From assembly GCA_016844925.1 (NCBI GenBank), contig JAERTI010000036.1:11053-75052 (forward strand): a DNA stretch of 64,000 nt, written 5' to 3'. Numbering within the stretch: position 1 is the stretch's first letter; each line of letters opens with the position of its first letter. This document shows, in pieces, positions 14,902 through 63,863 of this stretch. This DNA comes from Candidatus Uhrbacteria bacterium. Its GTDB lineage: Bacteria; Patescibacteriota; Patescibacteriia; UBA9934; GWF2-40-263. The notes under the pieces were generated by a model. That model was given only the letters and a program-made list of their open reading frames with translations. It was not told the origin of the DNA and searched no databases. The translations under genes and the position numbers were made by a program.

Positions 14902-15006
14902 CTCTCAACCGCGTACGCGGTTTTTTCTTTTATGTTACCTGAGATAAACGCATTGACACTCCCTTTATAAGCCGCTAACGTGCCTGCGCCCTCAAAGGAG
15001 AATGTC

Positions 15007-15642: not shown

Positions 15643-15669
15643 ACGCCTCCGTGTCTGTGACACGGTTTT

Positions 15670-16443: not shown

Positions 16444-16559
16444 AGGGTCTCACAGCCAGATGGGGGAGTCAAAAAGTTGTCGAAAATATCGTCAGATCTC
16501 CTGGGCAAATTTTTTTGGTCACGTAGTGTGATTATAGGTCATTCACAAAGGAGGCTCGC

Positions 16560-17945: not shown

Positions 17946-18099
17946 CACGCACACCCCACCCCCGATACGCATCGGGGATTTTTTTTGTGCAAAATAAATA
18001 CCCGCACTTGCTTCCGAAGAAGTGTAGTGCGGGGGAGTGGAGCCACGCGCTGGCTACACACTCAGTGCCCGACGTGCATCAGGCGGGTGTCCTGTCGGA

Positions 18100-19209: not shown

Positions 19210-19471
19210 TGGGAGTTCTCCAGTGTCCGCAGGCGGTTTGGTTGATGCCTTTGGACGTCTCTGCACACCAGTGAACTGCACTGGCACAGTGTTGCCCGTA
19301 TTCGGGACGAACGGCGGGAATACTATAGGAACCCTCTTAGGGTGTCAAGAGATCTGCCCGGGGATAAGTATTTAGCCCTTGTTTTAGGAAAAAAATCGGT
19401 TTTTCTCAGTAAAGTGATTAAGTGCAACGTTTTTACCTCAACGATGAAAAGCGATGCTACAATAAACTTCT

Positions 19472-22391: not shown

Positions 22392-23306
22392 ATGCGTCAC
22401 GTGTACCTGGCTGCTCTTGGCACGCTCTGCCTGCTCCTCACCAGCTTCCACATCCCGAAGGACTCCACCCTGGAGCTCGGCGTGGAACACGCGAGCACCA
22501 GCGACAACGCGACGAGCCGCACCACGCGGCAGCAAGACGAGATGCTGCAGACCCTCGTCTCCCTGGCTACATACAAGCAGCGCTTGGAAGAAGCCTGCGA
22601 GGCGTTCCTGATCTCAGACGCCACGTCCGAAGATCTCTCCGCGCTCCTCACGGTCGCCGGCTCTCACCGCGACCCCGCCGCCGTCTTCGTACGTTGCGGC
22701 CTGGAAGAAGATGATGTCGAGGATCTCTTGATGAGCATGCTCAGTGACCGCATCGAGGAAGGGGACCGAGAGGCCTCCCGCATCGCCTTCGCCCTGGCTG
22801 GCACACAGTGTTCCCAGACGCCGCTACAGATCGACCGCGAGTGCGAAGACGCCGCCGATGAACTGGAGTGGCCCGTGACTCGCTGGCGCTCTTGCATCAA
22901 GGACGGCTACAGCAGCTACAAGCAGTGCAGCCTCGACGTCCTGACCGAGCACGGCGTGAGTGCCACCAAGGTGGAGGACGCTTACTTTGGCAAGTACGCC
23001 AAACAGACCAGCGACCTGGTGCACGCAGCCAAGGACGGAAGCGCCGACCCTCACGAGGTCGTCGACGAACTCATGCGCCGCGCCGAAGATCGCGTCCTGA
23101 TCGAGACCATGGGCACGGGTGCCATGGGCGCCTCCAGCTACATGATCTTCGCCCTCTCCCAGAACCTGAAGTTCCAGGGCGAGACGGAACTCCAGGAAGA
23201 GATGCAGCCCCTGCTCGACTTCTGGATCCACCGCTGCGACCTGGACCAAACCGGAGCCCTAGACGACCACGAAGTAGACGACATCCAACTCGCCTACAAC
23301 GACTGA
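22392..23306 (+). CDS. GC-rich secreted hypothetical protein (304 aa; signal peptide, acidic, Cys-containing)
   Basis: TAAGGAGG-N8-ATG; terminator GACCCCCTGAGGGTC+TTTTTCTTTTTT at 23306-23335. Confidence 0.5.
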   Translation: MRHVYLAALGTLCLLLTSFHIPKDSTLELGVEHASTSDNATSRTTRQQDEMLQTLVSLATYKQRLEEACEAFLISDATSEDLSALLTVAGSHRDPAAVFVRCGLEEDDVEDLLMSMLSDRIEEGDREASRIAFALAGTQCSQTPLQIDRECEDAADELEWPVTRWRSCIKDGYSSYKQCSLDVLTEHGVSATKVEDAYFGKYAKQTSDLVHAAKDGSADPHEVVDELMRRAEDRVLIETMGTGAMGASSYMIFALSQNLKFQGETELQEEMQPLLDFWIHRCDLDQTGALDDHEVDDIQLAYND

Positions 23307-30585: not shown

Positions 30586-30675
30586 TAAGCAAAAACGGGC
30601 CGAAAGGCCTGTTTTTTGTTGACGCACGTATGGGCGCATGCAAAGATGCCGGCGCACATTGAAAGTGGAGTACTC

Positions 30676-31590
30676 ATGTCAGCTACTGGCACCCAGGTCG
30701 AGCTCGGCCGCCAGATCATCGGTCGCATCTCTCAGGACCGACAAGGCCATATTTCCGAGCAGCAGCTCGAGGTGGCCAGGGCCTACCTGGTGGGCAACTA
30801 CCTCCCGCTGGGCGAGAACGACTTCCTCGCTGTCCCCACGCCGACGGGCAAGATCATCAGCCTGGTCGTGAACGAGAAGATGGAGCTCATGATCTGCATC
30901 GAGACCACCCCCGGCAACGAGTCGACCCGGCAGATGTGGCACGGCCCCCTCGGGAACCTGAAGCAACTGGAGACCACCCCCACCAGTGCGACCGAGTCGG
31001 ATAGCGACGATCCTGACAACGAACAGCTCCCTCTGCCACAGATGCCCCAGCGCTTCGAGACCGGTGGAGAGATCTTCGAAGTCCGCTGGACCGACCCACA
31101 GACCCCGGGACTCAACACGGTCTACTCGCACACACGCGGGGACGAGACGCTGATCGATGGCATGTACGTCATGATCACCGACCTGGCCGTGACGGACAAG
31201 CACCTCATCTTCACCTTCCACCTCGACGTCCTGGGCACGTCCACACAATGGCAGGTCAAGAAGACGCAGATCACCGTCGTGAATCGTGGAACGGGTGACC
31301 ACCGTATCGAGGAAGAGGGGGAGTTGATCCAGGCCCGATGGGCCTTGCAACCTCCGTTCAGGGAGCTGCACTCCACCGGCACACGCATTGTTGTGGTGAA
31401 GCGCCACCCCTACGGTGGCAAGCATGCCACGCTCGGCGGCGTCTCGATCTACACCAACCGTGGACACATCTTCCACCGACTCCGCGGTGACTTCTCCACG
31501 CTCCACTACGCCTGCGGCGCCCTCTGGACCTGGCGCCCCGCACCCGGCGGCGCGGTCCTGACGCGCTACGACCTCCCCAACAGCGACTGA
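30676..31590 (+). CDS. GC-rich hypothetical protein (305 aa)
   Basis: TTGACG-N17-AAAGAT placed immediately after the upstream host terminator T-run; AAGTGGAG-N5-ATG. The ORF track start at 30616 is probably too far upstream. Confidence 0.5.
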   Translation: MSATGTQVELGRQIIGRISQDRQGHISEQQLEVARAYLVGNYLPLGENDFLAVPTPTGKIISLVVNEKMELMICIETTPGNESTRQMWHGPLGNLKQLETTPTSATESDSDDPDNEQLPLPQMPQRFETGGEIFEVRWTDPQTPGLNTVYSHTRGDETLIDGMYVMITDLAVTDKHLIFTFHLDVLGTSTQWQVKKTQITVVNRGTGDHRIEEEGELIQARWALQPPFRELHSTGTRIVVVKRHPYGGKHATLGGVSIYTNRGHIFHRLRGDFSTLHYACGALWTWRPAPGGAVLTRYDLPNSD

Positions 31591-41617: not shown

Positions 41618-41689
41618 AGGCCCTTGACACCCTCTACAGCCATGCTAATGTCTTCAGCCAGCACAACCCGAACGAGAAGGAGACTTTCC

Positions 41690-42196
41690 ATGCGACTCGT
41701 GCTGCTGATGGCGCTGTGCGCCACGACCCTGACCGCCTGCGGCCCCGACATGGTGGGCGGCAACGGTGGTGACGACACCGACGCCCCCGAGACCGAGACC
41801 TACCAGATCTGGGCCGAGCGCCTGGACGAGCACGCGCAGGTGAACGCCGAGCTGCTCGCCACCTGGGACGATCCCAACGCGCACGGCTGGCACTTCCAGC
41901 AGCCGGACACCGAGGGCGACGTCGAGCTCGAGTTCAACGACGCGCAGATCGAAGGTGCGCTCGCGAGCAACCCGGACTTCGACCTCGAGAACCTGGAGTG
42001 CATCCGCTTCAACGTCACCTGGGGCGAGGGCTGCGAGCAGGACGGCTCCCAGAGCCACTGCAACTGGCTGAGCTACGGACAGGGCGACAGTGCCTACACC
42101 ACCGGCGACTACAGCTTCGACGCCCCCGGCGACTGGGACACCCCCTGGATCATCGACGTCGACTCCGGCAGCTCCCTCATCAGCTGCCGCAACTGA
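41690..42196 (+). CDS. GC-rich lipoprotein (lipobox LTAC; acidic, Cys-containing), single-gene module
   Basis: TTGACA-N16-TAATGT plus GAGAAGGAG-N9-ATG. The promoter abuts the comM stop and the terminator ends TTTTCTTTTTG. The ORF-track start at 41624 is upstream of the signal peptide. Confidence 0.55.
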   Translation: MRLVLLMALCATTLTACGPDMVGGNGGDDTDAPETETYQIWAERLDEHAQVNAELLATWDDPNAHGWHFQQPDTEGDVELEFNDAQIEGALASNPDFDLENLECIRFNVTWGEGCEQDGSQSHCNWLSYGQGDSAYTTGDYSFDAPGDWDTPWIIDVDSGSSLISCRN

Positions 42197-48478: not shown

Positions 48479-49879
48479 CTAGGGCCGATCGATCTGGGAG
48501 GCGAGCTCCTTGACCGCGGCCACGATAGGCTCCGTTCGGGGGTTGCCCGAGAGCTCTCGGTTGAAGCGCACGCGCTTGCGCGGCTTGTTGCGCTCGAGTA
48601 CACGCCCCATGGTCAGGAACTGCCAGGCGCGATCGCGATCCCTCTCGCTGATCCGCAGTCGCCTGAAGTGCGGCTGACACAGACGCTTGAAGTCCGCATC
48701 GCTGACCCACGAACCTGTGAACGTGTTCGAGACGCTCTGCTCGGGCTGCAGCACACCGAACACCAGCCATACCTGCACCGCCGCCAAGTTGACCCTACCG
48801 GTCACGTAGGCGCCGATCTTCAGCTGACGGTGATCGAACGGTGGCAACACCGGCGGCGTAGCCTTGGCCTTGCGGGCCGGCGGCGGCTTGGGTGCTGGCG
48901 GCGGATCCGGTTCCGGCTCCTCCTCGTCCATCTGGCTCATCTGCTGCTCGAGGCGTGCGAACTCGATGAACTCACGATCCTCTCGATGACGATGATTGGC
49001 ATCGATCAGGTCACTGCTAAACGAGACCACACAGTCCTTCAGATCTTGCCCCTTCTCCCGCATGGAGTAGATCGCCAGCAGGTCGCCGAGCGCCTTGAGC
49101 GAGAGCGAGGGAAGCAGTCGGTGGTGCTGAATGAGCCCCTGAGCACTGTCGCTATCGAGCTCACCATCGAGCATGACGAGCACGTCGTCCAGCCGGTGGG
49201 CGAAGTGATCCATCAACTTCACGGTGGTCTCAACCGTGAGCGTGCGGCGCACCGACAGGGCACTGATGGCCAGCAGCTTGCACATGGGCAACGGCTGTGT
49301 CAGCCGGCTCATGAGTGCCACAAGGCGCTCGACGACTCCACGCGTCAGCCCCTCAGTGAGCACCGCTCCCATGGGCGCGTCTTCGCGATCGATCACCAGC
49401 GGCTCACAGCGCATGTGCGTGCCGATGAGCCAGAACAGCTCGGCGGGACGCTCCCAGTAGGCACGCTGCTGCGGCACCTTCTCCTTGGACCGACTCGAGA
49501 CACCCGGCGTGAGTGCATCGTAGATGGCCTTAAGGCTGGGCACCACATCCTCAGCACTGGCGAAACGAACACCGTAGTGCCAGGCCATGCCCAGCAGGTG
49601 AATGTGTCGCGGTGCGCGCTTGCGCGTACGCCCCTGGTTGATGGCGTCCACGCACTGCGCGAACGCTGCTTCCCTGGAGAGCGTACTGTCCTGAGACATC
49701 TTCACGGACGTCAGCGCGTGCAGCGCCGCGTTCGTGGCCACCACGAGCTCCGGGATGATCCCGAAGTCGACATAGACGGCCGGCACCTGAGAAGATCGCA
49801 GATCCGCGAGCTCTCTGGTGGCCTGGGGAGCCTTCAAGCTCCCGAGCTCCATGAGCCCTGAATGGATCATCTCCATGAG
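48479..49879 (-). CDS. GC-rich hypothetical protein (~466 aa) with Pro-rich acidic segment
   Basis: TTGACA-N17-TAGTCT plus CAGGAGG-N7-ATG (MEMIHSGL..); terminator GCCGCC..GGCGGC+TTTTTTCTTTCTT. The + strand 492-aa ORF 48383..49861 is rejected as antisense. Confidence 0.5.
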   Translation of the reverse strand, partial: LMEMIHSGLMELGSLKAPQATRELADLRSSQVPAVYVDFGIIPELVVATNAALHALTSVKMSQDSTLSREAAFAQCVDAINQGRTRKRAPRHIHLLGMAWHYGVRFASAEDVVPSLKAIYDALTPGVSSRSKEKVPQQRAYWERPAELFWLIGTHMRCEPLVIDREDAPMGAVLTEGLTRGVVERLVALMSRLTQPLPMCKLLAISALSVRRTLTVETTVKLMDHFAHRLDDVLVMLDGELDSDSAQGLIQHHRLLPSLSLKALGDLLAIYSMREKGQDLKDCVVSFSSDLIDANHRHREDREFIEFARLEQQMSQMDEEEPEPDPPPAPKPPPARKAKATPPVLPPFDHRQLKIGAYVTGRVNLAAVQVWLVFGVLQPEQSVSNTFTGSWVSDADFKRLCQPHFRRLRISERDRDRAWQFLTMGRVLERNKPRKRVRFNRELSGNPRTEPIVAAVKELASQIDRP

Positions 49880-49939
49880 ATTTCCTCCTGTCTGGGTCGA
49901 TAGGATATCTAAACCAGACGGTAGACTAGCCATTCATTG

Positions 49940-49977
49940 ACATTCTGTCAATCCATTGTTAACGTGCGTCCTCGCGG
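49940..49977. promoter_or_regulatory. Back-to-back divergent promoters whose -35 hexamers overlap in the palindrome TTGACATTCTGTCAA
   Basis: Read directly; serves 48479..49879 (-) and 49978..51025 (+). Confidence 0.5.
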
Positions 49978-51025
49978 ATTTTCCCGGGAGAAAGGGAGGA
50001 AAAACGTGGTAAACCGCTCCTACGCTTACCCAGCGCATGATGCACTGCGGCTCGCGTGGATGGCCTATCAACCGCGCGGACCCGTCCATGAGGACGACCG
50101 AATCCTGTACCTCGCCGGCGAAGAGAACCTGGAGCTTCCAGGTTACCGCCAGCTCGGCTACAGACCTGACCAGCTCCTTACCTGCGAACATGACCCTCGC
50201 CGCTTCCCTCACGTCCTGGCCAACGGCCAGGGAGTGAATGTGGCTCAGGGCAACATCGCCGATGCCATCGCTGCTCTCCAACAGTGGGAGTGGCCACGCT
50301 TGCGTGGCGCCTGGCTGGACTTCGACGGCAACTCCCATACCTACACCGACGAGCTCCTCAAGCTCGCGGCCGTGCTCCCATCACCCCGGGGTTCTACCCT
50401 GGGTGTGACGAGCTTCGCCGCGCGTGACAACGAGGCTCTAGTGCAGGGAACGGTGAACACCTGCAAGTTCCTTTCCGGACTCGAGAACCTCAGTCAATTC
50501 TTGCGCGAGTACGGAACACAGCTCAGGCAGTACGAACATCTACTGCGCTTCATTCGCCACGGCGAGTCGACCCCTACTTCGCACTTCCAACGCGAGATGG
50601 GGCTCCTCTGGTGGCTGGTGCTCATGTTCGGCTCGGTAGACCTCCCCAAGGGCGAGCGCTACTACCGCACCGACGGCGCTTTCTTGGATCGCTCTGCCAG
50701 CATCCTTGACGGACTCACCCGTAAGGTGGAAGGTGCTCTGAGCACCGGCTCACAGAGTCGCATGGTCTGGGAATTCGATCCCGCCCTGCGCGACCTGCTC
50801 GCTGGACGAAAGGTCAGCGTGTGGATCACGCACCTGGAGCGCTATGCGTTCTGGTCGCAGAACCGCCAGCCCATGCGAACCTGGTTCGTAAAGGTTCAGC
50901 CGGTCATCGAGGGCACCTTCGCGCCCACGATGCAGGAACTGTTGGTGCAAGTTTGGAAACTCGCGTGCCGAAGCCCGCTCATCTACATCGATGAGCAGGG
51001 TGGACGCGTGCAAATCGACCCCTAG
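49978..51025 (+). CDS. GC-rich hypothetical protein (~349 aa), GTG start
   Basis: GGGAGG-N6-GTG; ORF-track start 49937. No confident domain. Confidence 0.45.
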
Positions 51026-51040
51026 TGTAAGGAGGAAGCG

Positions 51041-51793
51041 ATGAAGGTCGCAGAGATCCTGGAGAAGGGAGCGGAGTTCCTGATGGGACTCGCTCAGCTG
51101 GCACGGATGGTGCCGGAGCTGGATGCGCGCGTGAAGGCGCTGGAAGAGCAGAGCTCGCCGCCCGAGCAGGACGGTGACAAGGAGCCCGAGCAGGGCGACG
51201 GTGGCAGCGCGGATCCCGAGCCCGAGCAGGGCGGAGACGGTGGTGGCGACGGTGCCACGGACCCGAAGGCCATCACGGCCGACCCGGACACCTGGCCGCT
51301 GCGCGAGCCGGATCTGTCCAGCCGGAAGATCCTCAAGCGCAAGAAGTACGACGTCGACGACGTCGACCGTGCCATCGTCGCGGCCGTGCTCGCCACGGAC
51401 CCCGACGACGCCACCTGGAACGAGGACCGCAAGAAGATCGCCAAGGTCCGCCGACTGATCCTCAAGCAGATCGACGGTCTGCACGCCGCGCACTCGCGTG
51501 CCAACGGCAACGGTGGTGGCGGTGGGGCCGACCCGGTCTACACCCACGTGCCGGCCACCTGGCCCACCCGGCCGCCCAAGCAGGTGCATCCCGACGGCTA
51601 CCCGCCACGCGGAGCCCAGAACTACGACAGCGATCAGACGGACCTGGCCATCGCCCTGGCCGTGCGCAAGCACGCCCCGAACGACTGGTCCACGCTCCGC
51701 TTCGAGATCGCCAAGGCCCGCCAGCTCACCACCCAGCAGGTGGCCGAGCTCGGAGCCCGCATCACCCGCCTGGGACTGCTAGACGCGGCCTAG
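51041..51793 (+). CDS. GC-rich hypothetical protein (250 aa; coiled-coil N-terminus, Gly/Asp/Pro low-complexity middle)
   Basis: TAAGGAGG-N6-ATG 16 nt after the upstream stop (same operon); terminator CGACCGCTACGACAGCGGTCG+TTTTCTTTTAC. Confidence 0.5.
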   Translation: MKVAEILEKGAEFLMGLAQLARMVPELDARVKALEEQSSPPEQDGDKEPEQGDGGSADPEPEQGGDGGGDGATDPKAITADPDTWPLREPDLSSRKILKRKKYDVDDVDRAIVAAVLATDPDDATWNEDRKKIAKVRRLILKQIDGLHAAHSRANGNGGGGGADPVYTHVPATWPTRPPKQVHPDGYPPRGAQNYDSDQTDLAIALAVRKHAPNDWSTLRFEIAKARQLTTQQVAELGARITRLGLLDAA

Positions 51794-51935
51794 ACGGCCA
51801 ACTTCCGACCGCTACGACAGCGGTCGTTTTCTTTTACTTCACAGGGGAAACCTCTTGACAAAGCGCTTTTTTCCGCCTAGGCTCCTCCTCTGGTAACCTT
51901 TCGTTACCGTTCATTCCCTTTCAGGAGGAGAACCC

Positions 51936-53852
51936 ATGTCAGGACGTAGATCCCGCCGCATCAGAGACGGCGGGGTCAGCGATGATCTGCGCCGCTCCCG
52001 AAACTTCCTTGCGCTACTGGGTCAGCTGGTAGACGCCGAGCAAGACGGAGATTTCGAAGACCATCTGTTCGACCCTGGTGCGTTCCAGCCGACCAAGGGA
52101 AGCCTCAGGACGGCCCTGGACCTCAAGCCACCGAGCGCAAGCCCGGCGAGCAACGAACCCAAGCCTGTTCAGGAAACCGAGCCTGCCGCCGAGCCGGAGC
52201 CGACTCCGGAACCCGAAGTCAAGCCCGAGCCCATCGAGGTTTCGCCGCCCGACCTTCCCGAGGAGCCTGCTCCTGAGGAACCTGCTGCCGAGCCGGAGCT
52301 GGAGATCGCTGCTGAACAGGAGCCCGAGCCGACTCCGGAACCCGAAGTCAAGCCCGAGCCGACCGATGCCAGCGAAGATCGCGCCGCGATCATCCAGCTG
52401 CATCCGCCGGCGCCTGCTCCTGAGCCGGAAGCGGCACACGAGCCGGACATCGAGCCCGAGGTGGAAGCCGAGGGACAGGACGCCGCAGACGAGATCACGC
52501 TCCTGGAGCTGATCGCCTACGCGAACGCCTTGCACACGAGCCATCCGCTCGCCGAGGGGCTGGAGAGCATCTCGCTCCGACGCATCCTCCGTGGTTTGGA
52601 CTCCGCCGGTGTCCTGGTGGAAGCCGTGGGCACTGGATCCCTCACGCAGGCCAAGAGTCTGTTGTCCGCGCGTCACCGCACGCTCAAGACACTGCTCGAT
52701 ACGGCACAACAGGAAGCAACGGCCGCTGGTGCACCCGGAGACCTTCCGGATGAAGACCAGGGTCTGATCCGTCGACTCAACTCGCTCGTTGCGGGCCAGG
52801 CGGAGCAGCTTGAAGATGTGCACTCGCAGATCTACATCTCCGTGACAGAAGCACAGGTCATCACCGATGCTGTCGTCGATCTGGGAAACCAGGTCACCCA
52901 GCACGAGGATGCCTTGCTGGCACAGGTGGCGGTGGTCAAGGGCCTGGAAGCCCACATCACTCGTTACCACCTCTTGCGCGCGCACTCGATCGAGCAGCGT
53001 GCTGCCAACGACAAGAAGCGAGATGGCTTCGTCACGCAGATGCGCACCATCACGGCACGCATCGACACCTTGCACGCGCAGATGCGCAGTGCCATCACGG
53101 CGGCCGAGAGCAAACTCTCGGAACGCCAGACACTGAACCTCACCACGCGCAAGCCGCGTGATCGCGCCAAGCGTGGCATCACGCAGCTGCGCGCGCAGGT
53201 CAGCGCTGTGGAACTGCTCGGCGCCCGCGTGCCGGACGACCTCCTCGAACAGATCGAGGGTCTGATCCAGCCGTTGGACCTCTCCTTGCGTCTGTGGAAG
53301 CGGAGCACGCCTCCGCTGGAGACCCCGGAACTCTCGATGGAAGTCGAGGAGGCACTGAAGGAACTCGAGGACATCAAGGGTCGAGTCATCGCCCTGTTGA
53401 GTGCCCCAGAGGGACCGTTCCTGGGTCGTGAGACCCGTGAGCTGGAGCTGCGCAAGCTGCTGCTGATCACCATGGAGCTGGTCATCCCTGAGGGGAACGA
53501 GACCACAGGGAGCAAGAAGTCTGTCCCTCACCGAGGCTACAAGACGGCCCACTACCTCAACGCCCTCCTGCACCTGGGCTACATCACCCAGGCTGAAGTG
53601 GACCTTGAGGAAGAAGAAAAGAACTTGATGAACTGGGCAAAGTTGGAGCGCAAGCGAAAGACAAACCCCAAGCTCAAGTACGCCAAGGGCCATGGTCGTA
53701 GGACCAGAGGCATGAACTGGCACTCGTTCAACCTGACCCAGCACGGACACGATCTGGCACAGGAGCACTTGAACGAGTTGCGGGACCGCGCTGCCTTCAC
53801 GGTAGCCATCAAGCGCGCCTTCAAGCACGTGCTTCCCAAGCACTGGCAGTAG
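51936..53852 (+). CDS. GC-rich hypothetical coiled-coil protein (638 aa) with Pro/Glu-rich N-terminal region containing a perfect 35-bp direct DNA repeat
   Basis: TTGACA-N17-TAGGCT; CAGGAGG-N7-ATG; terminator CCCCACCATCACGCGGTGGGG+ATTTTTTG. Confidence 0.55.
   Translation: MSGRRSRRIRDGGVSDDLRRSRNFLALLGQLVDAEQDGDFEDHLFDPGAFQPTKGSLRTALDLKPPSASPASNEPKPVQETEPAAEPEPTPEPEVKPEPIEVSPPDLPEEPAPEEPAAEPELEIAAEQEPEPTPEPEVKPEPTDASEDRAAIIQLHPPAPAPEPEAAHEPDIEPEVEAEGQDAADEITLLELIAYANALHTSHPLAEGLESISLRRILRGLDSAGVLVEAVGTGSLTQAKSLLSARHRTLKTLLDTAQQEATAAGAPGDLPDEDQGLIRRLNSLVAGQAEQLEDVHSQIYISVTEAQVITDAVVDLGNQVTQHEDALLAQVAVVKGLEAHITRYHLLRAHSIEQRAANDKKRDGFVTQMRTITARIDTLHAQMRSAITAAESKLSERQTLNLTTRKPRDRAKRGITQLRAQVSAVELLGARVPDDLLEQIEGLIQPLDLSLRLWKRSTPPLETPELSMEVEEALKELEDIKGRVIALLSAPEGPFLGRETRELELRKLLLITMELVIPEGNETTGSKKSVPHRGYKTAHYLNALLHLGYITQAEVDLEEEEKNLMNWAKLERKRKTNPKLKYAKGHGRRTRGMNWHSFNLTQHGHDLAQEHLNELRDRAAFTVAIKRAFKHVLPKHWQ
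52197..52360 (+). repeat. Two copies of an exact 35-bp direct repeat (GAGCCGACTCCGGAACCCGAAGTCAAGCCCGAGCC) at 52197-52231 and 52326-52360, encoding EPTPEPEVKPEP
   Basis: Read directly. Confidence 0.8.
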
Positions 53853-53927
53853 AAGGTACCCCCACCATCACGCGGTGGGGATTTTTTGTTGTAAGAAAAA
53901 ACCGACCGCGTAACGGTCGGGGACGTA

Positions 53928-55160
53928 CTAGTCGGTGACAACCAGTCGTGCGTAGAGGCGGAGCAGGGTCCGCAGCTCTTCGATCTGCTCTTCGATCTGG
54001 GTGATCTCGGGGAGACCCTCGGTGCTGAACGAACCGACGAGCTCGGTACGCTGCCCATCCAGATCCTTCAGGTCCTTTGCGACGCCGTCACGCGCAGCGG
54101 TCAGCTCCGCGATCTCACGGTCCAGCTCCTCTCGACGAGTCGTGAGGCTGGCGATCTGCTCGTCCAGCCCCTGCGTCGCCTCAGCGAGCTTCTCGCTGGC
54201 CACGCGCTCACGCTGAGCGAGCAGCTCGTCGATCTCGCCCTGGAGCTCCTCCGGCGTCTTCACGCGCGGAGACGCGGGCGGAGCGGGAACCGGGGGCTCC
54301 GGCTCCTCCTCGGGCTCGGACTCCTTCTGCACCAGCTCCTGCCAGCGCTGACACTCCTCCGGCGTGACGAGATCGCCCGCCAGGTTGAAGTACGGCCGGA
54401 GGACCACCACGTACATGGACGGGTCGGTCCGTGAGCGCAGCTTGCCACGCGTCACGTAGAGCAATCCGAGCCCCTTGAGGTCACGAATCATGCTCTGGGG
54501 CGACGTGATGTCCGCATCCTTGAGAACCTCCATGAGCTCCCCGAAGGTGAACTCGCGGTGACCCTCTCGAGCAGAAAACTCGCAAAGGGCCTCGACGGCT
54601 CTCTGTCGACGATCGGATCGAATCACGACCTGATCGGCGTCCGGAGGCATGATCCACGGCCCGTCGGGCAGAGGGCTCGGCCAGATCACTTCCGAAGGAC
54701 CGAGATCACCACGGAGCTTGCCGTCATGACCAGGCTTCTGACCCTTGAGATCCTCGGGCTCCCACCGCTCGTTGTCGTTGGCCTTGCAGATGAAGACCAC
54801 GCCGGAGGTGTAGGGCACCACCGGAACACTCACGCTGCCGACCTCTTCGACGGTCCCGATGGCGTCGCGCTGCTTCTTGAGCACGCCGAGCATGGTTGAG
54901 CCAGGAGTCTTGGCGTGCCAACCGACGATCTCATCGCGAACATCCTGGGGCACCGGACGCTTCCGGTTGTCCCAGAACCACCGCGTCAGATCCTTGACGA
55001 TGGCGTTCTCCACCTTGCCCAAGCGCACCTCGCGCAGGGGCTCCTCGCTCGCTCCAGCTCCGACTGCGCCTTGCATGGCGCTGGCATCGGAACGCGTTAC
55101 CGTTCGTCCTCCGCGCCCTGGACCTTGTCCAGTCGCCTGAGGGGCTGCCTCATTCGGCAT
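53928..55160 (-). CDS. GC-rich hypothetical protein (410 aa) with central winged-helix-like segment and C-terminal coiled coil
   Basis: TTGACA-N17-TAGGGT plus GAGAGGAGG-N6-ATG; terminator CCGACCGTTACGCGGTCGG+TTTTTTCTTAC on the minus strand. Confidence 0.5.
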   Translation of the reverse strand: MPNEAAPQATGQGPGRGGRTVTRSDASAMQGAVGAGASEEPLREVRLGKVENAIVKDLTRWFWDNRKRPVPQDVRDEIVGWHAKTPGSTMLGVLKKQRDAIGTVEEVGSVSVPVVPYTSGVVFICKANDNERWEPEDLKGQKPGHDGKLRGDLGPSEVIWPSPLPDGPWIMPPDADQVVIRSDRRQRAVEALCEFSAREGHREFTFGELMEVLKDADITSPQSMIRDLKGLGLLYVTRGKLRSRTDPSMYVVVLRPYFNLAGDLVTPEECQRWQELVQKESEPEEEPEPPVPAPPASPRVKTPEELQGEIDELLAQRERVASEKLAEATQGLDEQIASLTTRREELDREIAELTAARDGVAKDLKDLDGQRTELVGSFSTEGLPEITQIEEQIEELRTLLRLYARLVVTD

Positions 55161-55204
55161 TGGTACCTCCTCTCAGTGAAAAAACTGAGGGTTGACCCTA
55201 CGTC

Positions 55205-55262
55205 TGCAGCGCCTGGATGTCAAGGTTTTAGCCTTGACAGAGCCCAAACGCACTGTTAACTT
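55205..55262. promoter_or_regulatory. Divergent back-to-back promoters (..GATGTCAAGG TTTTAG CCTTGACAGAG..) forming an imperfect inverted repeat
   Basis: Read directly. Confidence 0.45.
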
Positions 55263-55331
55263 GTGCCTCTTCTGGGCGTTTTACAAAAAACCCCAGATTT
55301 AGGCTCTTTCCCCCCTACCGGAGGTAGCTCC

Positions 55332-56873
55332 ATGACAACGACACCCACCTGGAGTGTTCCCGAGTATGAATACCGGCGTGAGCTGCTGGGTAAGCAGTTC
55401 CACAGGCTCTTCAAGCAGTTCCTCGACGCCAACCGAGGTGACCCGTCACCCAAGACGGCGTTCAAGAGACTGAGCACTTCGGCGGTCGAGGCATTCGCCC
55501 GCGAGCCCACCGATCCGCTCCCTTTCGCCAAGTACTTCCCCAACATCGAGGAAGTCACGGGGATCGACATCGATCGGCTCATGGTCATCGATGCCAAGCT
55601 CAAGCTCATCAAGTTGTGGGAGGATCGATTCCTCCTGCGACGACGTGACGAGCCCCTGGCCTTCCTACTGGACCAGTGCGACGACTTGCCCGAGAGGTTC
55701 GAGTTCGATCGGTACCCAACTCGCGATGAGATTGTGCTGGAAATCCAGGCACTCAGCGACGAGATCGGCTCGCCGATGGTCGCCCAGCAGATGTTCGTGA
55801 ACCAAGGAACGGTCACCAAGTGGTGGGCCGCCAACAAGCCGGGTCGACCGGCAGGCGAAACCCTGATCAAGTGCATCGCCCTGCTGACGGTGGGACCCGT
55901 GCGCTTCCACGGTGGGATCAACTCCCGCGATGACGTCCGATTCCGACTGGTCGTTCGCAACCTTCTGGGCTGCGACCCCCACGAGGTCCTGGGCGTCCGC
56001 AACCTCCCCGAGGCCATCGCGGCACTGGAGCTCGGTGACATCGGCGACATGATCTCTGTGGTGGAGAACCGCACCGGACTTGGTGCTACCACCATCAAGA
56101 ACCTGCGCAAGTGGAGCGCCGAGACCTCCAGCGGCAAGATGCCCGCTCAGAGCATGATGAAGATCATCCGCTTGCTCCTGGCGCGCACCCACCCTGACAA
56201 GCTGACGGACTTCGACGCGGCCGGGAAGCTCTTCCTGGACGCGAAGAACCTCGGCTGGGGCGGCACACCGCTGTTCTGGCCCAAGGTAGTCCAGCAGCCG
56301 AAGCAGCCCGCACCGGAGCCTGAGCCCGTTGTGGCACAGGAGCCGGAGGAACCTGCACCGGAGCCGGCCATGGGACGCAACACCCCCAGTTCGCTCGAGC
56401 TCCTGGAGTTCAAGCGCGCAGTGGTGACGCTGGAACATCTGACCGAGCTCTTTCCTGGACTCCTCGACCAGCTCCCTGAGGCCCTCAAGCCCAAGGTGGC
56501 AGTCGATCCGGAACCGGAGCCCGAACCAGAGCCGGCCGTCGCCGCTCCAGAACCGCCCACCAATGGCGTCACGTCTGAGGTGGACCTGGAGAAGTTGGGG
56601 CCCAAGTGGTTCATCGCGCTGGTGGAGAGCGACAGGCGCCCCACGGCCGGAGAGCTCTCGCAGATCTCCGCGATCCTGCGTGCGTACCCCAAGCTGATCG
56701 GCCGCCTTCTGGGGCTGCCGGTCGAACAACGACGACGTTTCTTCCGAGGCGTTGATGGCTCCATGCTCGCAACCGCCGAGCGACTGCAGGCCGTCGACGC
56801 AACGGAACCCGAACGCTTCCTGAATTTCCTCGACCACGAACTCGAGGACCGGTTCAAGGCCGCAGGAGGCTGA
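55332..56873 (+). CDS. GC-rich hypothetical protein (~514 aa) with a Cro/C1-type helix-turn-helix segment (..SPMVAQQMFVNQGTVTKWWAANKPGRP..) and Pro/Glu-rich linkers
   Basis: TTGACA-N17-TAACTT; CCGGAGG-N8-ATG (MTTTPTW..). The ORF-track start at 55263 is upstream of the RBS. Confidence 0.5.
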   Translation: MTTTPTWSVPEYEYRRELLGKQFHRLFKQFLDANRGDPSPKTAFKRLSTSAVEAFAREPTDPLPFAKYFPNIEEVTGIDIDRLMVIDAKLKLIKLWEDRFLLRRRDEPLAFLLDQCDDLPERFEFDRYPTRDEIVLEIQALSDEIGSPMVAQQMFVNQGTVTKWWAANKPGRPAGETLIKCIALLTVGPVRFHGGINSRDDVRFRLVVRNLLGCDPHEVLGVRNLPEAIAALELGDIGDMISVVENRTGLGATTIKNLRKWSAETSSGKMPAQSMMKIIRLLLARTHPDKLTDFDAAGKLFLDAKNLGWGGTPLFWPKVVQQPKQPAPEPEPVVAQEPEEPAPEPAMGRNTPSSLELLEFKRAVVTLEHLTELFPGLLDQLPEALKPKVAVDPEPEPEPEPAVAAPEPPTNGVTSEVDLEKLGPKWFIALVESDRRPTAGELSQISAILRAYPKLIGRLLGLPVEQRRRFFRGVDGSMLATAERLQAVDATEPERFLNFLDHELEDRFKAAGG

Positions 56874-56996
56874 CACGCGGGTGAGGCACCCCTCGCCCCT
56901 TTTCTCAAGCAACTCATTCATCCTGAATGTGTTGCTGGAGCTAAAGACACGCTCCTTTCATTGTCATCTACCACTTCCCACACTGGAGAGAAGCCC

Positions 56997-59021
56997 ATGG
57001 GCGCTCGAAAGCTGAAGATCGCAGGGGGCGGCATCGACCGTTCCGCACTGCGCAAGAACACGGACGCGTACCTACGCTGGGTGGACATGTTCATCGAGCT
57101 GGCCAGCAACATCGAAGACGCTGGCGGCAACGAGGTCACCATCAAGTTCATGCGCATCAAGCGCAAGCTCTGTGTGCTGGTCTGGGGCAACGGCCCCGGC
57201 GTCATCAACTGGACTCCCTTCGTGAGCCTGCTGAACAGCCCCAGCGAGTCGGACCTGACCAAGCGTGGCAAGATGGGCTCGGGTTCCAAGTCCCCCCTGC
57301 GCCACGGCCAGGAGGTGACCTACCAGAGCCTGCGCCGCGGCGCCTCGCGCCTGCAGCAGCTCAGCTACACCGCCGAGCTGCTGGAGACCATTCTCCACGA
57401 CGGCGTGGAGCCCGAGCTGCTGGAGCTGGAGATCCCGGCCGGCTGCCCCCTGACCGGGAGCGGTCTGCTGGTGACCATCACGGGCATCGGCAAGGGGCCG
57501 TCGCAGTACGTCGACCCCAAGGAGGACCGCTCGTTCAAGCGGGCCATGGAGGACTACTCCACCCTGGCCTCGCGTTCGCTCGCGCACATGACCACGTTCA
57601 TCGACGAGCGTGGGCACAAGCACCAGGTCAAGCCCCGTGAGCTCGACGGCGAGCTCATCGAGCTGACCGGGGAGATCCCCGGTCTGGGCCCCATCGGCGC
57701 GCACGTGTCGGTGGCCAGCAAGCCCAACCGCCAGGAGCGCCTCTCGGTGTGGTCGCACGACCGCGCCTGCACCATGGGAGAGTTCCTGCGCCAGGCGGCG
57801 CGCATCCCGTCCAACCGTGATCTGGCCCTGCGCCTGCTCAAGGTCCTGGACGTCCCGCTCGTGCTCGGCGAGGTGAGCTGCAAGGGCTTCGGTCCGCACC
57901 ACGTCCGTGGGGCCAACACCGGCTTCATGCAGAGCCTGTACAACGACGAGGAGACCGTCTTCCTGTTCCTGCAGTGGCTGCAGGACAACCTGGTGCCCAA
58001 GGTGCTCGCCATCATGGGAGCTCCCGAGCCGGAGCAGGAGACCACCGACTCGGACCTGTGCCGAGAGCTGGTGCAGCGCTTCCAGCAGATCGGCGGCGCT
58101 CCCGAGGACGACACGGACACGCACGACCTGAACACCACGCAGCTGTCCACCGACCCCACGGTCATCACCCTGGAGTGCGGAGACGACTGCTGGATCACGC
58201 TCGGAGGAGCGCCTGAGGGTGCCTCTGTGCGGTGGGATGCCAAGAGCAGCGGAGGCTCGCTCAACCGCACCAGCGGCAAGCGCGTGCACTTCACCGCTGG
58301 CACGGACCGTGGCAAGTACAGGCTGTACATCCACGTGAACAAGGTCGTCCACGCGGTGCAGGTGGAGCTGTTCACCCGCCTGACCCCCAAGCTGCGTCAG
58401 CGCACCCGCACGGGCGCGCCCGACCAGATCATCACCTGGACCCTGGACCACACCGGTCACATCAAGGGCAAGGTGCAGTGGCGTCTGAACCCGCAAGACG
58501 CGGGAACGCTGGAGATCGCCGAGGACACCTTCTCGTGCAGGCACCGCCTGCCGGGCGTGACCACCAAGCCCATCGAGATCTTCCCCACGGGGAAGCTCGA
58601 CGACGGCACGAACATGAACCTCAAGGGCATGGTCATGGTGGCCCCCCGTTCGACCAAGCCGAGGGAATCCACGCCGCGCAAGCGGTCGGCTGTGGAGTGG
58701 ACGCTCGACGGCCACACCTACGCCCTGAAGATGTTCCGCGGCGGAGCGTCCAAGGACCTCGAGTCCTGCATGGTCGACCCGCACGACGAGGAGCCCTACA
58801 CCACGATCTTCATCAACCTGGCGCATCCCAAGTTCCAGGGCTCGGCCACCACGCGTCAGCGGGTGGCCGAGGTGGAGATCGCGGACGCCATCTCGGGTGA
58901 CGAGATGCGTCGCAAGCAGACGAACCTGCGCACCCGCAGGACGCTCAGCGCCGAGGACATGCTCCAGACCGTGCGCGAGCGTGCCAACGAGCTCTTCGTC
59001 CAGCTGATCCAGCTGGGCTAG
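56997..59021 (+). CDS. GC-rich ~675-aa protein with an N-terminal GHKL (Bergerat-fold, Hsp90/MutL/MORC-like) ATPase-like region and a large uncharacterised C-terminal region
   Basis: N-box-like ..FIELASNIEDAGGNEV.., G1-like ..VWGNGPGV.., G2-like ..GKMGSGSKS.. in the canonical order and spacing; GGAGAG-N6-ATG; terminator CCCCGACAACGCAACGTCGGGG+TTTTTTC at 59045-59080. The assignment is motif-based inference only. Confidence 0.5.
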   Translation: MGARKLKIAGGGIDRSALRKNTDAYLRWVDMFIELASNIEDAGGNEVTIKFMRIKRKLCVLVWGNGPGVINWTPFVSLLNSPSESDLTKRGKMGSGSKSPLRHGQEVTYQSLRRGASRLQQLSYTAELLETILHDGVEPELLELEIPAGCPLTGSGLLVTITGIGKGPSQYVDPKEDRSFKRAMEDYSTLASRSLAHMTTFIDERGHKHQVKPRELDGELIELTGEIPGLGPIGAHVSVASKPNRQERLSVWSHDRACTMGEFLRQAARIPSNRDLALRLLKVLDVPLVLGEVSCKGFGPHHVRGANTGFMQSLYNDEETVFLFLQWLQDNLVPKVLAIMGAPEPEQETTDSDLCRELVQRFQQIGGAPEDDTDTHDLNTTQLSTDPTVITLECGDDCWITLGGAPEGASVRWDAKSSGGSLNRTSGKRVHFTAGTDRGKYRLYIHVNKVVHAVQVELFTRLTPKLRQRTRTGAPDQIITWTLDHTGHIKGKVQWRLNPQDAGTLEIAEDTFSCRHRLPGVTTKPIEIFPTGKLDDGTNMNLKGMVMVAPRSTKPRESTPRKRSAVEWTLDGHTYALKMFRGGASKDLESCMVDPHDEEPYTTIFINLAHPKFQGSATTRQRVAEVEIADAISGDEMRRKQTNLRTRRTLSAEDMLQTVRERANELFVQLIQLG

Positions 59022-59135
59022 AGCCGGTCGAGCCACAAAGCACGACCAACCCCCGACAACGCAACGTCGGGGTTTTTTCATTGACAAAAACACCCAGGAC
59101 AGCTACCCTCCGGGCGTTATTTACTCCCATTTATT

Positions 59136-61510: not shown

Positions 61511-61792
61511 TTAGACGGTGGTTTTTATTTTGCTCTTTTCTGGCGGCTCATCAACTCCTCCTTGATTAAACGGATTGCATCTCAGGATGCGCCACGCTGT
61601 CAGGACACCTCCCTTCATCACCCCATGATCCTCGATGCACTTATACCCATATTGTGAACAGGTGGGATAAAAGCGGCAGTAGCCTTGGGGATAGAGCTTA
61701 CTGGGAAGTCCGTGATCAAATGAAAGGGTCTTTTGGTACAGACGAATCACGCCCAGCAACGCGAGACGGGGGAGAGCGAAGACCCATCTCAT
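61511..61792 (-). CDS. yidD: Membrane protein insertion efficiency factor YidD
   Basis: ..[25 protein letters not shown].. is a canonical YidD. Confidence 0.85.
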
Positions 61793-62130
61793 ACAAGCAA
61801 CTTCGCCTTGTCCAAGGTCTTCATGAGCTGCTCTTCGATTTCACTCGACTTCTTTCCAACAGCTTCTTTGCGAACAATGAGGAGGACGTCATACCCAGGA
61901 ACAATCTCATCTAAATGACTATGCACAATTGTGCGCACTTGCCGCTTCACACGGTTTCGGTCAACAGCCTTTTTGGAGACTTTTACCCCCGCCGCTACAG
62001 CAAAACGAGAAACGTTCAGATCGTTCTTTTGTGCCTTCACTCCCACGTACATACCAAAGACGCTCTTGCCTTTGGCAGAGAGCGTTTTGATATCCTTATC
62101 TGATTTTAGCCTATGCGCCTGAGGCAACAT
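61789..62130 (-). CDS. rnpA: Ribonuclease P protein component
   Basis: ..[39 protein letters not shown].. The ORF-track entry 61789..62295 is over-extended into rpmH. The start ATG at 62128-62130 is directly after the rpmH stop. Confidence 0.8.
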
Positions 62131-62131
62131 A

Positions 62132-62269
62132 TTACGCACTAAGCTGCTTGCGACCCTTTGCACGGCGACGCTTGAGAACGTTCTTGCCGCCTGGGGTAGC
62201 CATGCGTGCGCGGAAGCCGTGCACCTTGGCACGCTGCTTCGTCTTTGGCTGGTGAGTTCGTTTAGGCAT
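62132..62269 (-). CDS. rpmH: 50S ribosomal protein L34
   Basis: Manual translation gives [45 protein letters not shown]; not in the ORF track (too short). Confidence 0.9.
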
Positions 62270-62450
62270 ATATTTTTACGAGGAAACTGTAACACATTTA
62301 AAGCATCGAGATGCTAACACACTATCCACAGATGATCAACCCATATACACAGTTGCACCCCACTTGCCCACATGTGGATAGATGATCTAAACTACACGGC
62401 ACGTGTAACTTTTTAGGAGGATTTTTGCCCTTCATTCATACTCGCACCCT
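62270..62450. other. Probable chromosomal replication origin region (oriC) between rpmH and dnaA with DnaA boxes CTATCCACA (62325-62333) and TGTGGATAG (62375-62383) and GATC sites
   Basis: Conserved rnpA-rpmH | dnaA synteny plus DnaA-box nonamers read directly. The DNA-unwinding AT-rich element is not obvious and may lie downstream of dnaA, beyond or at the window end. Confidence 0.6.
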
Positions 62451-63863
62451 ATGAATACCAATGAACTTTGGCAAGCTGTACTCGGTGAGCTTGAACTTAC
62501 CCTCAGTAAAGCCAACTTTACCACCTGGTTTAAACACACATTCATTTCACATGTGGATGAAAACTCTGTGGTCATTGGTGTTCCAAACATGTTTACCAAA
62601 GCATGGCTTGAAAAGAAATATTCGAAGGAGATCCTTCGTTCACTGCAGGAACTTTCAAACAACTCTATTAAGCAGCTAACTTATCGCGTCGAGGCGCGAC
62701 CAGCTGCCCCACAGGCTGTCCCCGTTTTTGAAAAAGAAAAGGCACCAGAGCCTGCACCATCATACGCCCAGCCAACACACTACGGGCAAACACACACCCA
62801 TACACACGCGGCTCCAGTAAAAGAAATCCGTACGGGTGAATTCTCACTTAATGGGAAGTACTGCTTCGGTACCTTTATTGTTGGTAAACAAAATGAACTT
62901 GCCCACGCCGCCTCTCAAGCTGTGAGCACACAGCCGGGCGGTGTTTATAATCCACTATTTATCTACGGCGGTGTAGGACTGGGGAAAACACACCTCCTCC
63001 AAGCGATCGGAAACGAGTTGATGCGCAAAAACCCTAATACAAAGATCCTTTACGTTACTTGTGAGCGTTTCACCAACGACTTCATTGGTGCACTGCGATC
63101 AAACCGCATTAACGAATTCAAGAACCGTTACCGCACTGTGGATGTTTTGTTAGTAGATGACATTCAGTTCATTACGGGTAAAGAGGGGACGCAGGAGGAG
63201 TTCTTCCACACGTTCAACCAGCTCTATCAAAACAATAAACAGATTGTCATCTCGTCAGACCGACCTCCTAAGGCGATCCCTGCACTGGAGGACCGGCTCG
63301 TCTCCCGCTTTGAGTGCGGCATGCTCGCAGACGTTGGTTCACCAGATTTTGAGACGCGCTGCGCTATTTTGGACACAAAATGTAGGGAAAAACAGTATCA
63401 AATGGAGCGAGAGATCATGCATCACGTTGCCACTGTTGTGCAGACAAACGTACGTGAGCTCGAAGGGGCGCTCAATAAAATCATCGCGTTCCACCAATTC
63501 AAGAACGCTCGCCCAACACTCGACACCGTAAAACCGATCCTCACAAGCTTCCAGCCAGCGTCCATTCGAAAGAGTGTCACGCCAAAACAACTGATCCAGA
63601 CTGTGGCTGTCTACTTCGACATTCAAATAGAAGACCTTCTTGGAAAGAGCCGACAAAAACGCCTCGCATTCCCTCGCCAAATTGTGATGTACCTCATGCG
63701 AGAGGAAATGAAGTCCTCCTATCCATCTATTGGTACTGAACTTGGAGGCCGCGACCACACCACCGCCATGCACGCGTACGACAAAATCTCGAACTGTCTG
63801 TTGGAAGATGAAAAATTGCAGCACGACCTAGAGCTCATCAAACAAAAGATGTACGCCATGTAA
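62451..63863 (+). CDS. dnaA: Chromosomal replication initiator protein DnaA
   Basis: Walker A GGVGLGKTHLLQAIGN, sensor/box VII, C-terminal DNA-binding domain (..DHTTAMHAYDKI..). Confidence 0.95.
   Translation: MNTNELWQAVLGELELTLSKANFTTWFKHTFISHVDENSVVIGVPNMFTKAWLEKKYSKEILRSLQELSNNSIKQLTYRVEARPAAPQAVPVFEKEKAPEPAPSYAQPTHYGQTHTHTHAAPVKEIRTGEFSLNGKYCFGTFIVGKQNELAHAASQAVSTQPGGVYNPLFIYGGVGLGKTHLLQAIGNELMRKNPNTKILYVTCERFTNDFIGALRSNRINEFKNRYRTVDVLLVDDIQFITGKEGTQEEFFHTFNQLYQNNKQIVISSDRPPKAIPALEDRLVSRFECGMLADVGSPDFETRCAILDTKCREKQYQMEREIMHHVATVVQTNVRELEGALNKIIAFHQFKNARPTLDTVKPILTSFQPASIRKSVTPKQLIQTVAVYFDIQIEDLLGKSRQKRLAFPRQIVMYLMREEMKSSYPSIGTELGGRDHTTAMHAYDKISNCLLEDEKLQHDLELIKQKMYAM

Follow-up and report, generated by a model that had tools for sequence, protein, structure and literature searches.

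Engines built from a GHKL domain and an S5 domain (topoisomerases, MutL, Hsp90 and MORC) form a small and ancient set, and new architectures among them are rare. MORCs are defined by an S5-domain motif, GhXhhpXXRhl, that unites their prokaryotic and eukaryotic members (PMC2292703). The paraMORCs, of which families 1–5 have been described, are GHKL plus S5 families without the MORC motif that reside in restriction-modification neighbourhoods (Iyer, Abhiman and Aravind 2008, PMC2292703); their contexts include SF2 helicases, methylases, and RE-fold, HNH or TIR domains, and their spread is sporadic and laterally mobile (PMC2292703). Here we describe g7, the last gene of a seven-gene cluster (g1–g7, positions 48479–59021, no Pfam matches) in a 64,000-nucleotide stretch of DNA from Candidatus Uhrbacteria bacterium (assembly GCA_016844925.1, contig JAERTI010000036.1), the whole of which we refer to as the window. 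The protein encoded by g7 belongs, as a highly diverged member, to a GHL-type (GHKL plus S5 transducer) family not described before that, as judged from sequence comparison, is closest to the MORC/paraMORC/MutL group. (Note that literature searches yielded nothing relevant on MORC in Patescibacteria, on Tiamat/TmtA, or on Uhrbacteria GC islands.)

The open reading frame of g7 spans 56961..59021 on the plus strand, and the ATG at 56997 gives a protein of 674 residues. This start is backed by a Shine-Dalgarno-like GGAGAG ~8 nt before the ATG, and the resulting N-terminus aligns with those of homologues. Moreover, g7 is under purifying selection when compared with a 92%-identical orthologue (ratio of nonsynonymous to synonymous substitution rates, dN/dS, 0.39), and so is a real gene. 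The original prediction, made from the letters of the window, had taken g7 to be a putative GHKL-superfamily ATPase on the strength of three motif strings, the N-box, G1 and G2, followed by ~500 residues with no recognisable similarity. All three strings are found exactly and in order: the N-box string is F32-IELASNIEDAGGN, with E34, N38 and D41-A42-G43, and it is followed by V62-WGNGPGV and G91-KMGSGSKS. Written as a regular expression, the three motifs in this order matched the six-frame translation of the window once, in the g7 open reading frame, and neither 20,000 shuffled versions of the protein nor 100 of the window gave a match. Across the four closest homologues the motif residues do not vary, and the motifs are nearly invariant in an alignment of 66 g7 family members, to which every count out of 66 refers.

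When g7 alone was used as the query, there were no matches in Pfam (including the HATPase models), PADLOC or PHROGs, nothing credible among PDB sequences with phmmer (two chance-level matches, E=0.26 and 1.3), and in NCBIfam a sub-threshold match of residues 31–107 to the sacsin-like GHKL model NF047352 (E=0.043). A word-indexed homologue search with g7 returned three relatives, and an exhaustive HMMER search with the alignment of these homologues returned 146 matches. Approximately 80 of these are full-length proteins of 630–720 residues; the others cover residues ~384–450 only, as repeated domains in giant proteins. (Repeating the word-indexed search with the 66-sequence profile gave almost no further relatives, and a narrow-alignment search for further g7 loci found only loci already known and none in viral contigs.) HATPase_c_3 was matched by 57/66 family members and HATPase_c by 33/66, and a 35%-identical orthologue of g7 at the same chromosomal position matched HATPase_c_3 confidently. 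The family profile matched residues 26–128 of MORC2, the region from N-box to G2, with E=3.6e-14, followed by MORC3, MORC4, MutL, MLH1/PMS2, HtpG/Hsp90 and TopoVI-B. The whole protein is captured by no curated model or defence catalogue that was searched, and those family members that bear organism names are all Patescibacteria.

A confident AlphaFold model of g7 built with the 66-member alignment had a mean predicted local distance difference test score (pLDDT) of 88.9 and a predicted template modelling score of 0.68 (with a 4-sequence alignment the pLDDT was 42.9 and the model unusable). The model has the Bergerat alpha/beta sandwich, with helices (H) and strands (E) at H28-41, E47-64, H96-102, E106-125 and onward, and an S5-fold transducer comes directly after the GHKL domain, the arrangement that marks the GHL subgroup. 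The aligned lengths in Foldseek place the two-domain GHKL plus S5-transducer module at residues 1 to ~300, and the top structural matches include DNA-compacting MORC2 and SMCHD1. Thus the GHKL fold, on whose detection by profile or structure searches the original prediction hinged, was found by both, whereas the remaining ~500 residues proved recognisable after all:

56997..59021, plus strand: g7, encoding a 674-residue GHKL plus S5 (paraMORC-like) protein
56997..57506, plus strand: N-terminal strap and GHKL (Bergerat) domain, residues 1–170 (MORC2 profile match and model)
57507..57896, plus strand: S5-fold transducer, residues ~171–300 (AlphaFold model and Foldseek)
57897..58106, plus strand: helical linker, residues ~301–370, with helices 318–340 and 345–365 (AlphaFold model)
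58146..58376, plus strand: first immunoglobulin (Ig)-like beta-sandwich domain (Ig1), residues 384–460, hypervariable
58377..58646, plus strand: second Ig-like beta-sandwich domain, residues ~461–550 (AlphaFold strands 470–548; W495 in 63/66 members)
58695..59018, plus strand: conserved C-terminal domain, residues 567–674, of four strands and a helical hairpin, helices 617–642 and 652–673 (AlphaFold model)

A flexible hinge occupies residues 372–380. The C-terminal hairpin domain, a candidate dimerisation domain by analogy, carries the motif h-x-h-N607-x-x-H610-P611-x-F (N607 in 52/66, H610 in 59/66 and P611 in 46/66 members). (Of note, its h-N-x-x-H-P-x-F portion, residues 606–614 at 58812–58838, superficially resembles the NVHPAK loop of the MutL transducer.) None of g1–g7 contains a transmembrane-like stretch, and g7 has no signal-like segment either. 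The Ig domains of g7 are therefore cytoplasmic, and the idea of a secreted or surface protein, which those domains had raised, was ruled out. A histidine kinase was also ruled out, since the S5 transducer is there and HisKA is absent.

A regular-expression search for GhXhhpXXRhl returned one match among the 66 members, located outside the S5 domain. The motif that defines MORCs (MORC1–4 and the prokaryotic MORCs; HATPase_c_3) is thus absent in 65/66 members, and we therefore file the g7 family as new and paraMORC-like rather than as MORC sensu stricto. In place of a CW, coiled-coil or other MORC-type C-terminal domain g7 has two Ig-like domains and the hairpin domain, and it differs from MORCs further in having neither the Asp of G1 nor a restriction-modification neighbourhood. 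With paraMORC1–5 the family shares an N-terminal GHKL domain, an S5 domain, a family-specific C-terminal extension, a prokaryotic occurrence and the absence of the MORC motif, but it has no recognisable restriction-modification partners, is vertically inherited at one locus and has a partner of its own, g6. (Note that the family is set apart from paraMORC1–5 by their published description and not by sequence models.) SMCHD1 is eukaryotic, is ~2,000 residues long and dimerises through an SMC hinge, and its sequence relation to g7 is limited to the GHKL module. More canonical family members weakly matched three kinds of GHKL protein from defence systems, namely TmtA of Tiamat (17/66 members, best E=1.6e-8), MzaB of MZA (6–9/66) and the BbrUII/HgiDII restriction enzymes (BbrUII in 34/66, best E=2e-12). 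A common GHKL domain is by itself enough to account for such E-values, the genes lie in different contexts, and g7 itself matches none of the three. Sacsin-like models were also weakly matched by such members.

The nucleotide-binding motifs of g7 are as follows:

57096..57128, plus strand: N-box, E34-x3-N38-x2-D41-A-G-G (N38 in 65/66, D41 in 63/66 members)
57180..57203, plus strand: G1 box, V-W-G64-N-G-P-G-V, with Gly for the adenine-binding Asp (G66 in 63/66, G68 in 64/66)
57261..57293, plus strand: G2 box and end of the ATP lid, K-R-G91-K-M-G94-S-G96-S-K98-S, of the MORC type GxxGxGxK (G91 in 65/66, G94 in 60/66, G96 in 65/66)

The N-box of g7 (E34-LAS-N38-IE-D41) has the form E-x3-N-x2-D, and its G2 has the form G-x-x-G-x-G and aligns with IGQYGNGLKSG of MORC2. 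VWGNGPGV is present as originally read, but it is not a canonical G1, since the Asp of D-x-G-x-G is replaced by Gly64 and the glycines alone are retained. In GHKL proteins this Asp contacts the N6 of adenine (GyrB D73, Hsp90 D79/D93, MutL D58), and its loss is predicted to impair adenine binding by g7. The GHKL assignment stands, on profiles, model and Foldseek, whereas ATPase activity is not established, because G1 is without its Asp; g7 alone, moreover, matches no HATPase model. Across the family 35 members, g7 included, have Glu at the position of the catalytic base and 31 have Gln. Position 64 is Asp in 53/66 and Gly in 10/66, the ten being the g7 clade plus two independent cases, and R307 of the transducer is present in 41/66; only 20/66 members are fully canonical (E, D, R). 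In the GHL subgroup a conserved basic residue of the transducer senses the gamma-phosphate, for which R307 or, in the g7 clade, R304 is a candidate. The differences extend to orthologues at the same locus: Glu and Asp are found in genomes L006–L008, Gln in L009, and Gly64 in g7, L001 and L004. The family is thus a natural experiment on GHKL active-site drift, with both the Glu/Gln base and the Asp/Gly adenine contact varying among same-locus orthologues.

The cluster is flanked on one side by the genes for an H+-pyrophosphatase (PPase) and KhpA and on the other by tig-suhB-DUF167-yidD-rnpA-rpmH-dnaA, and it lies ~3.4 kb from rnpA-rpmH-dnaA-dnaN. A homologous cluster of 5–7 genes is found at the same position in seven other Parcubacteria/Uhrbacteria/Patescibacteria assemblies (L001, L003, L006–L009 and L012), which with the window makes eight syntenic genomes with the placement PPase ... 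tig ... dnaA. In five genomes g7 is 53, 35, 27, 27 and 24% identical, compared with 77, 70, 61, 59 and 61% for tig and 72–89% for DnaA. Ranked by divergence in the island proteins, the genomes come in the same order as by the flanking genes, but the island divergence is far larger. Against the closest genome g7 has a dN/dS of 0.39 and g6 one of 0.19, compared with 0.011–0.039 for tig, dnaA and suhB. There is no integrase, tRNA or flanking repeat at the cluster. By tblastn, phages had no match to g7 or g2 and plasmids had none to g7, and none was found in viral contigs. The cluster is a case of in-place vertical descent with rapid evolution, not of recent import. (Note that 61511–63863 has the classical origin-region order of yidD (minus strand), rnpA (minus strand), rpmH/L34 (62132–62269, minus strand) and dnaA (plus strand), and that the cumulative GC skew falls monotonically to the end of the window. 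An oriC located where rpmH and dnaA adjoin would mean that tig and the majority of the island genes, those on the plus strand, are transcribed head-on to replication.)

Divergence within g7 is concentrated in Ig1. In the two closest pairs Ig1 is 72% identical when the other domains are 91–100% identical, and 62% identical when they are 73–81% identical. Of the ~66 nonsynonymous differences that separate g7 from its nearest orthologue, 26 fall in Ig1 (dN 0.167, omega 0.61), and the dS of Ig1 is also raised, at 0.272 compared with 0.05–0.15 elsewhere in g7. Ig1 is thus a divergence hot spot and may be a recombination mosaic. (The window contains neither a template repeat nor a reverse transcriptase nor a paralogue, and a diversity-generating retroelement was therefore ruled out as the agent of change in Ig1.)

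Together with g7, the genes g4, g5 and g6 make up the conserved core of the cluster:

55263..56873, plus strand: g6, the partner of g7, with its likely true start at the ATG at 55332; every syntenic locus has an orthologue upstream of g7
56625..56837, plus strand: C-terminal helical domain of g6, ~70 residues, homologous to genes that abut or overlap the g7 relatives in L010, L011, L015 and L016
53928..55160, minus strand: g5, with a C-terminal coiled coil, divergent from g6; orthologues in L001, L004, L006–L009 and L012
51936..53852, plus strand: g4, whose N-terminal region is acidic and rich in Pro and Glu, whose middle part is helical and whose C-terminal domain is conserved; orthologues in L001, L006–L009 and L012

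The g6 protein consists of XRE-like helix-turn-helix (HTH)-like segments, a Pro/Glu-rich linker and the C-terminal helical domain. The original prediction had called the gene upstream of g7 an HTH gene, and the support for this is weak (HTH_3, E=0.011, in 1/7 orthologues; HVO_A0261_N, E=0.0037). For g5 the library matches were of the coiled-coil type only and for g4 there was no family match, apart from weak SMC/Rad50 coiled-coil-type matches in both. The distant g7 relatives in L010, L011, L015 and L016 have unrelated contexts, and each directly follows a gene whose product ends in a helical domain of ~70 residues homologous to the g6 C-terminus; in L011 this domain is a stand-alone protein of 80 residues. 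Moreover, the stop of the partner gene abuts or overlaps the start of the g7 relative in L007, L008, L009, L012 and L015. The distant pairing and the abutting genes indicate that the universal unit is the partner domain plus the GHKL protein.

With rather less than even confidence, we favour a role for this module in genome conflict, namely the surveillance or silencing of invading DNA in the manner of a vertically inherited restriction factor, because of its evolutionary rates, the recurrent turnover of its active site and its variable domain. The weak similarity of family members, at the level of the GHKL domain, to TmtA, MzaB and the BbrUII/HgiDII restriction enzymes also speaks for such a role. 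In such a role g7 would be a constitutive dimer held together by the C-terminal hairpin domain, by analogy with MORC and MutL, and the N-terminal GHKL halves of the dimer would close as a gate. By the same analogy, the gate would act on DNA or nucleoprotein recruited by the HTH-like N-terminal segments of g6 and by the coiled-coil proteins g4 and g5, and Ig1 would present a recognition surface for a fast-changing ligand. Because D64G has arisen and the family's transducer Arg (R307) has been lost in the g7 clade whereas the Mg and phosphate-loop residues have been kept, what drives the gate of g7 is probably not normal ATP turnover but nucleotide binding of a weak or non-canonical kind, or the partner.

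Several observations weigh against a conflict role. PADLOC returns nothing for g7 and coiled-coil noise only for its neighbours, and no nuclease (RE-fold, HNH or Vsr), SF2 helicase, methylase or TIR domain was found in g1–g6 or their orthologues with Pfam, PADLOC, PHROGs or NCBIfam, so that the restriction-modification context of MORCs and paraMORCs is missing. The value of dN/dS is below 1 in every domain of g7 and is therefore no proof of positive selection. For DNA binding by g6, g4 and g5 the signs are weak or were read by eye, the C-terminal domain is a putative dimerisation domain by analogy with MORC and MutL, and the taxonomic range of the family is judged from a handful of named members. 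Furthermore, strict synteny and single-copy vertical descent are atypical of defence and would suit a housekeeping system near oriC.

It is indeed possible, though on balance unlikely, that the cluster is a lineage-specific housekeeping system for chromosome organisation, linked to the origin, in which g7 compacts or bridges DNA in the way that MORC and SMCHD1 do, with coiled-coil and DNA-binding partners, and which stays beside oriC because it acts there. The position between PPase and tig, close to rnpA-rpmH-dnaA-dnaN, is fixed in 8/8 syntenic genomes, the module is single-copy, vertically inherited and free of toxin or nuclease domains, and both the structural matches to MORC2 and SMCHD1 and the weak SMC/Rad50-type matches of g4 and g5 are in keeping with such a system. 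However, the dN/dS of g7 is 10–35 times that of the flanking housekeeping genes, catalytic residues have been lost repeatedly among orthologues, and Ig1 is hypervariable. In addition, the distant family members in unrelated contexts argue that proximity to the origin is not a property of the family.

Less likely still is that the GHKL domain of the g7 clade no longer binds or hydrolyses ATP, and that g7 is a scaffold or adaptor for the other proteins of the cluster. The Gly at position 64 in place of the adenine-contacting Asp would fit a pseudo-enzyme of this kind, as would the clade-specific W63, the change of the transducer motif P296/N299/R307 to Lys, Gly and Asn (g7 has N307, plus an R304 that is invariant in its clade) and the Gln base in 31/66 members, from which hydrolysis appears dispensable in many of them. 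Within the Gly64 clade, however, whose members are 53% identical overall, E34, N38, D41, G66, G68, the basic lid from K89 to K98 and G2 are all invariant, which argues that the ligand pocket is still constrained and points to its being used. Note that a pseudo-enzyme would overlap with the proposed conflict role rather than exclude it.

The base composition of the island bears on its origin. Its GC content is 61–67%, compared with ~50% in the flanks, and the excess is mostly at third codon positions (GC3 0.74–0.92, compared with 0.53–0.67 in the flanks). The GC3 of g7 itself is 0.92, and its orthologues likewise exceed their flanks: 0.76 compared with 0.37–0.46 in L001, 0.83 with 0.36–0.47 in L006, 0.46 with 0.23–0.31 in L007, 0.29 with 0.14–0.19 in L008, and 0.65 with 0.36–0.41 in L009. 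The excess over tig was +0.10 to +0.36 in six of the six syntenic genomes measured, whatever their base composition, and in L010, the one non-syntenic genome measured, the excess was larger (0.70 compared with 0.20–0.33 in neighbours). At such protein distances a foreign relic would have been erased, and the GC3 excess is therefore actively maintained; the cause could be selection acting on the DNA or mRNA, or else gene conversion that is biased, at a locus that recombines. In addition, the dS of g7 against its nearest orthologue is 3–6 times lower than that of neighbouring genes, and a GC3 excess together with depressed dS constitutes a separate puzzle about the upkeep of base composition.

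The original prediction had leaned towards conflict systems of the MORC plus HTH type, and the high GC content and GC3 of the island, together with the fact that seven of its seven genes are orphans, would be expected of a horizontally acquired mobile conflict or defence island. That the cluster is one is nonetheless very improbable, for eight genomes carry it at the same site and are ranked alike by its divergence and by that of the flanks, there is no integrase, tRNA, flanking repeat, or phage, plasmid or viral match, and a GC3 excess that recurs in genomes of very different composition is not that of an un-ameliorated import. The module does not look like a mobile defence island, and whatever link to conflict it has is that of a vertically inherited cluster, unlike typical mobile conflict islands. 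(Other open reading frames with high GC3, 0.77–0.96, lie far from the island, at 18100–19287 (minus strand) and at 20618–21883, 22392–23306, 30616–31590 and 41624–42196 (plus strand), and the N-termini of some of them are like signal peptides or like those of lipoproteins. High GC3 is therefore not confined to the island; in this genome it characterises a class of non-housekeeping genes.)

That g7 is a lineage-specific Hsp90/HtpG-like chaperone or MutL-like repair factor is scarcely credible, given that HSP90 (PF00183), DNA_mis_repair (PF01119) and MutL_C matched 0/66 members in Pfam, that PRK14083 was matched weakly by 2/66 only, that the family's mutL NCBIfam matches are weak and confined to the GHKL domain, that MORC ranks above MutL and Hsp90 with the family profile, and that g7 family members, unlike MutL, MLH and PMS, have no recognised endonuclease motifs and evolve fast, whereas conserved chaperones and repair proteins do not display a dN/dS of 0.39 or catalytic loss among orthologues.

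The distance from the g6 stop (56873) to the g7 ATG (56997) is 123 nt (120 bp in the original prediction), and corresponding spacers in the g7 clade are 90–125 nt long (here 56874–56996); relatives without the spacer have overlapping or abutting genes instead. Two RNA features flank g7:

56879-56948, plus strand: two-hairpin spacer element, conserved in the g7 clade (four independent sequences only)
59051..59072, plus strand: intrinsic-terminator-like hairpin with a U6 tail, 30 nt 3' of the g7 stop codon (-13.9 kcal/mol, z -2.8)

The first hairpin of the spacer (56879–56898, -14.5 kcal/mol) is terminator-like, and in the second, which extends to ~56948, the U-tract pairs with a downstream AAAG. 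Two sequences of the element, CUUUUCUCAAGC and GCUGGAG, are invariant. Across the clade 86.5% of the cells pair, compared with 40–51% in slid controls, and eight pairs have compensatory changes. There was no match in Rfam, and a repeated operator was ruled out by the single occurrence of the motif in the window. Given that it is represented by four independent sequences, we regard the element as a lead; it may be an attenuator or processing site that sets the dosage of g7. Because of these hairpins, simple co-transcription of g6 and g7, which had been thought probable, is uncertain in this genome.

A more elaborate and rather unlikely form of the conflict proposal, offered as a speculative synthesis, is that of an origin-linked and vertically inherited nucleoprotein module of Uhrbacteria-like Patescibacteria resembling a restriction factor, in which a MORC-like GHKL-S5 clamp with a hypervariable Ig sensor, a small obligate partner domain and coiled-coil or DNA-binding accessory proteins evolve in an arms race and the spacer RNA sets the dose of the clamp. 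In such an arms race catalytic residues would be lost repeatedly, and the raised GC3 and low dS would be upheld by frequent allelic recombination or by selection at the level of DNA. If true, bacteria that for the most part are without CRISPR would possess innate immunity of a new kind, fixed in the chromosome, or else a chromatin-like system.

Whichever role applies, the family adds to the known GHKL plus S5 engines an architecture of GHKL domain, S5 domain, helical linker, two Ig-like domains and hairpin domain together with an obligate partner, and its named members all fall in the Patescibacteria, a radiation with largely uncharted lineage-specific biology. A role in conflict would make it the bacterial equivalent of those restriction factors of eukaryotes, such as MORC3, that are inherited vertically and evolve fast, and a role in chromosome organisation would make it a MORC-type nucleoid organiser in bacteria.

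The other three genes of the cluster form its variable accessory part:

48479-49933, minus strand: g1
49937-51025, plus strand: g2
51041-51793, plus strand: g3

These genes are present in L001 and L006 and are inverted or partly absent in L007–L009, and in L012 there is a sigma-70 gene instead (4454–5608). No significant Pfam match came up for the orthologues of g1, g2, g3 and g6, and when PDB sequences were searched with profiles of g6, g5 and g2 there was no match or coiled-coil noise only. The best conserved protein of the island is that of g2, which is 67% and 55% identical where g7 is 53% and 35% identical; it has 35 homologues, all of ~335 residues, and no Pfam or PDB match. By eye, its motif order GLYLPG ... 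E-x-D ... G-x-I-x-x-A ... LDFDG resembles that of a Rossmann-type methyltransferase.

Two of the distant loci have neighbours of a different kind. In L015 a gene for a SNF2-like/methyltransferase-like protein of 1,036 residues (16784–19894) lies 4.8 kb downstream of the g7 relative, the only such case. On the Andersenbacteria contig L016, an RVT_1 reverse transcriptase and an AAA_3/AAA_5 ATPase (13884–17161 and 15435–15748) lie beside the distant g7 relative, and a 43-nt imperfect direct repeat is found 3' of the reverse transcriptase; together these could be a retron, DRT or diversity-generating-retroelement-like element.

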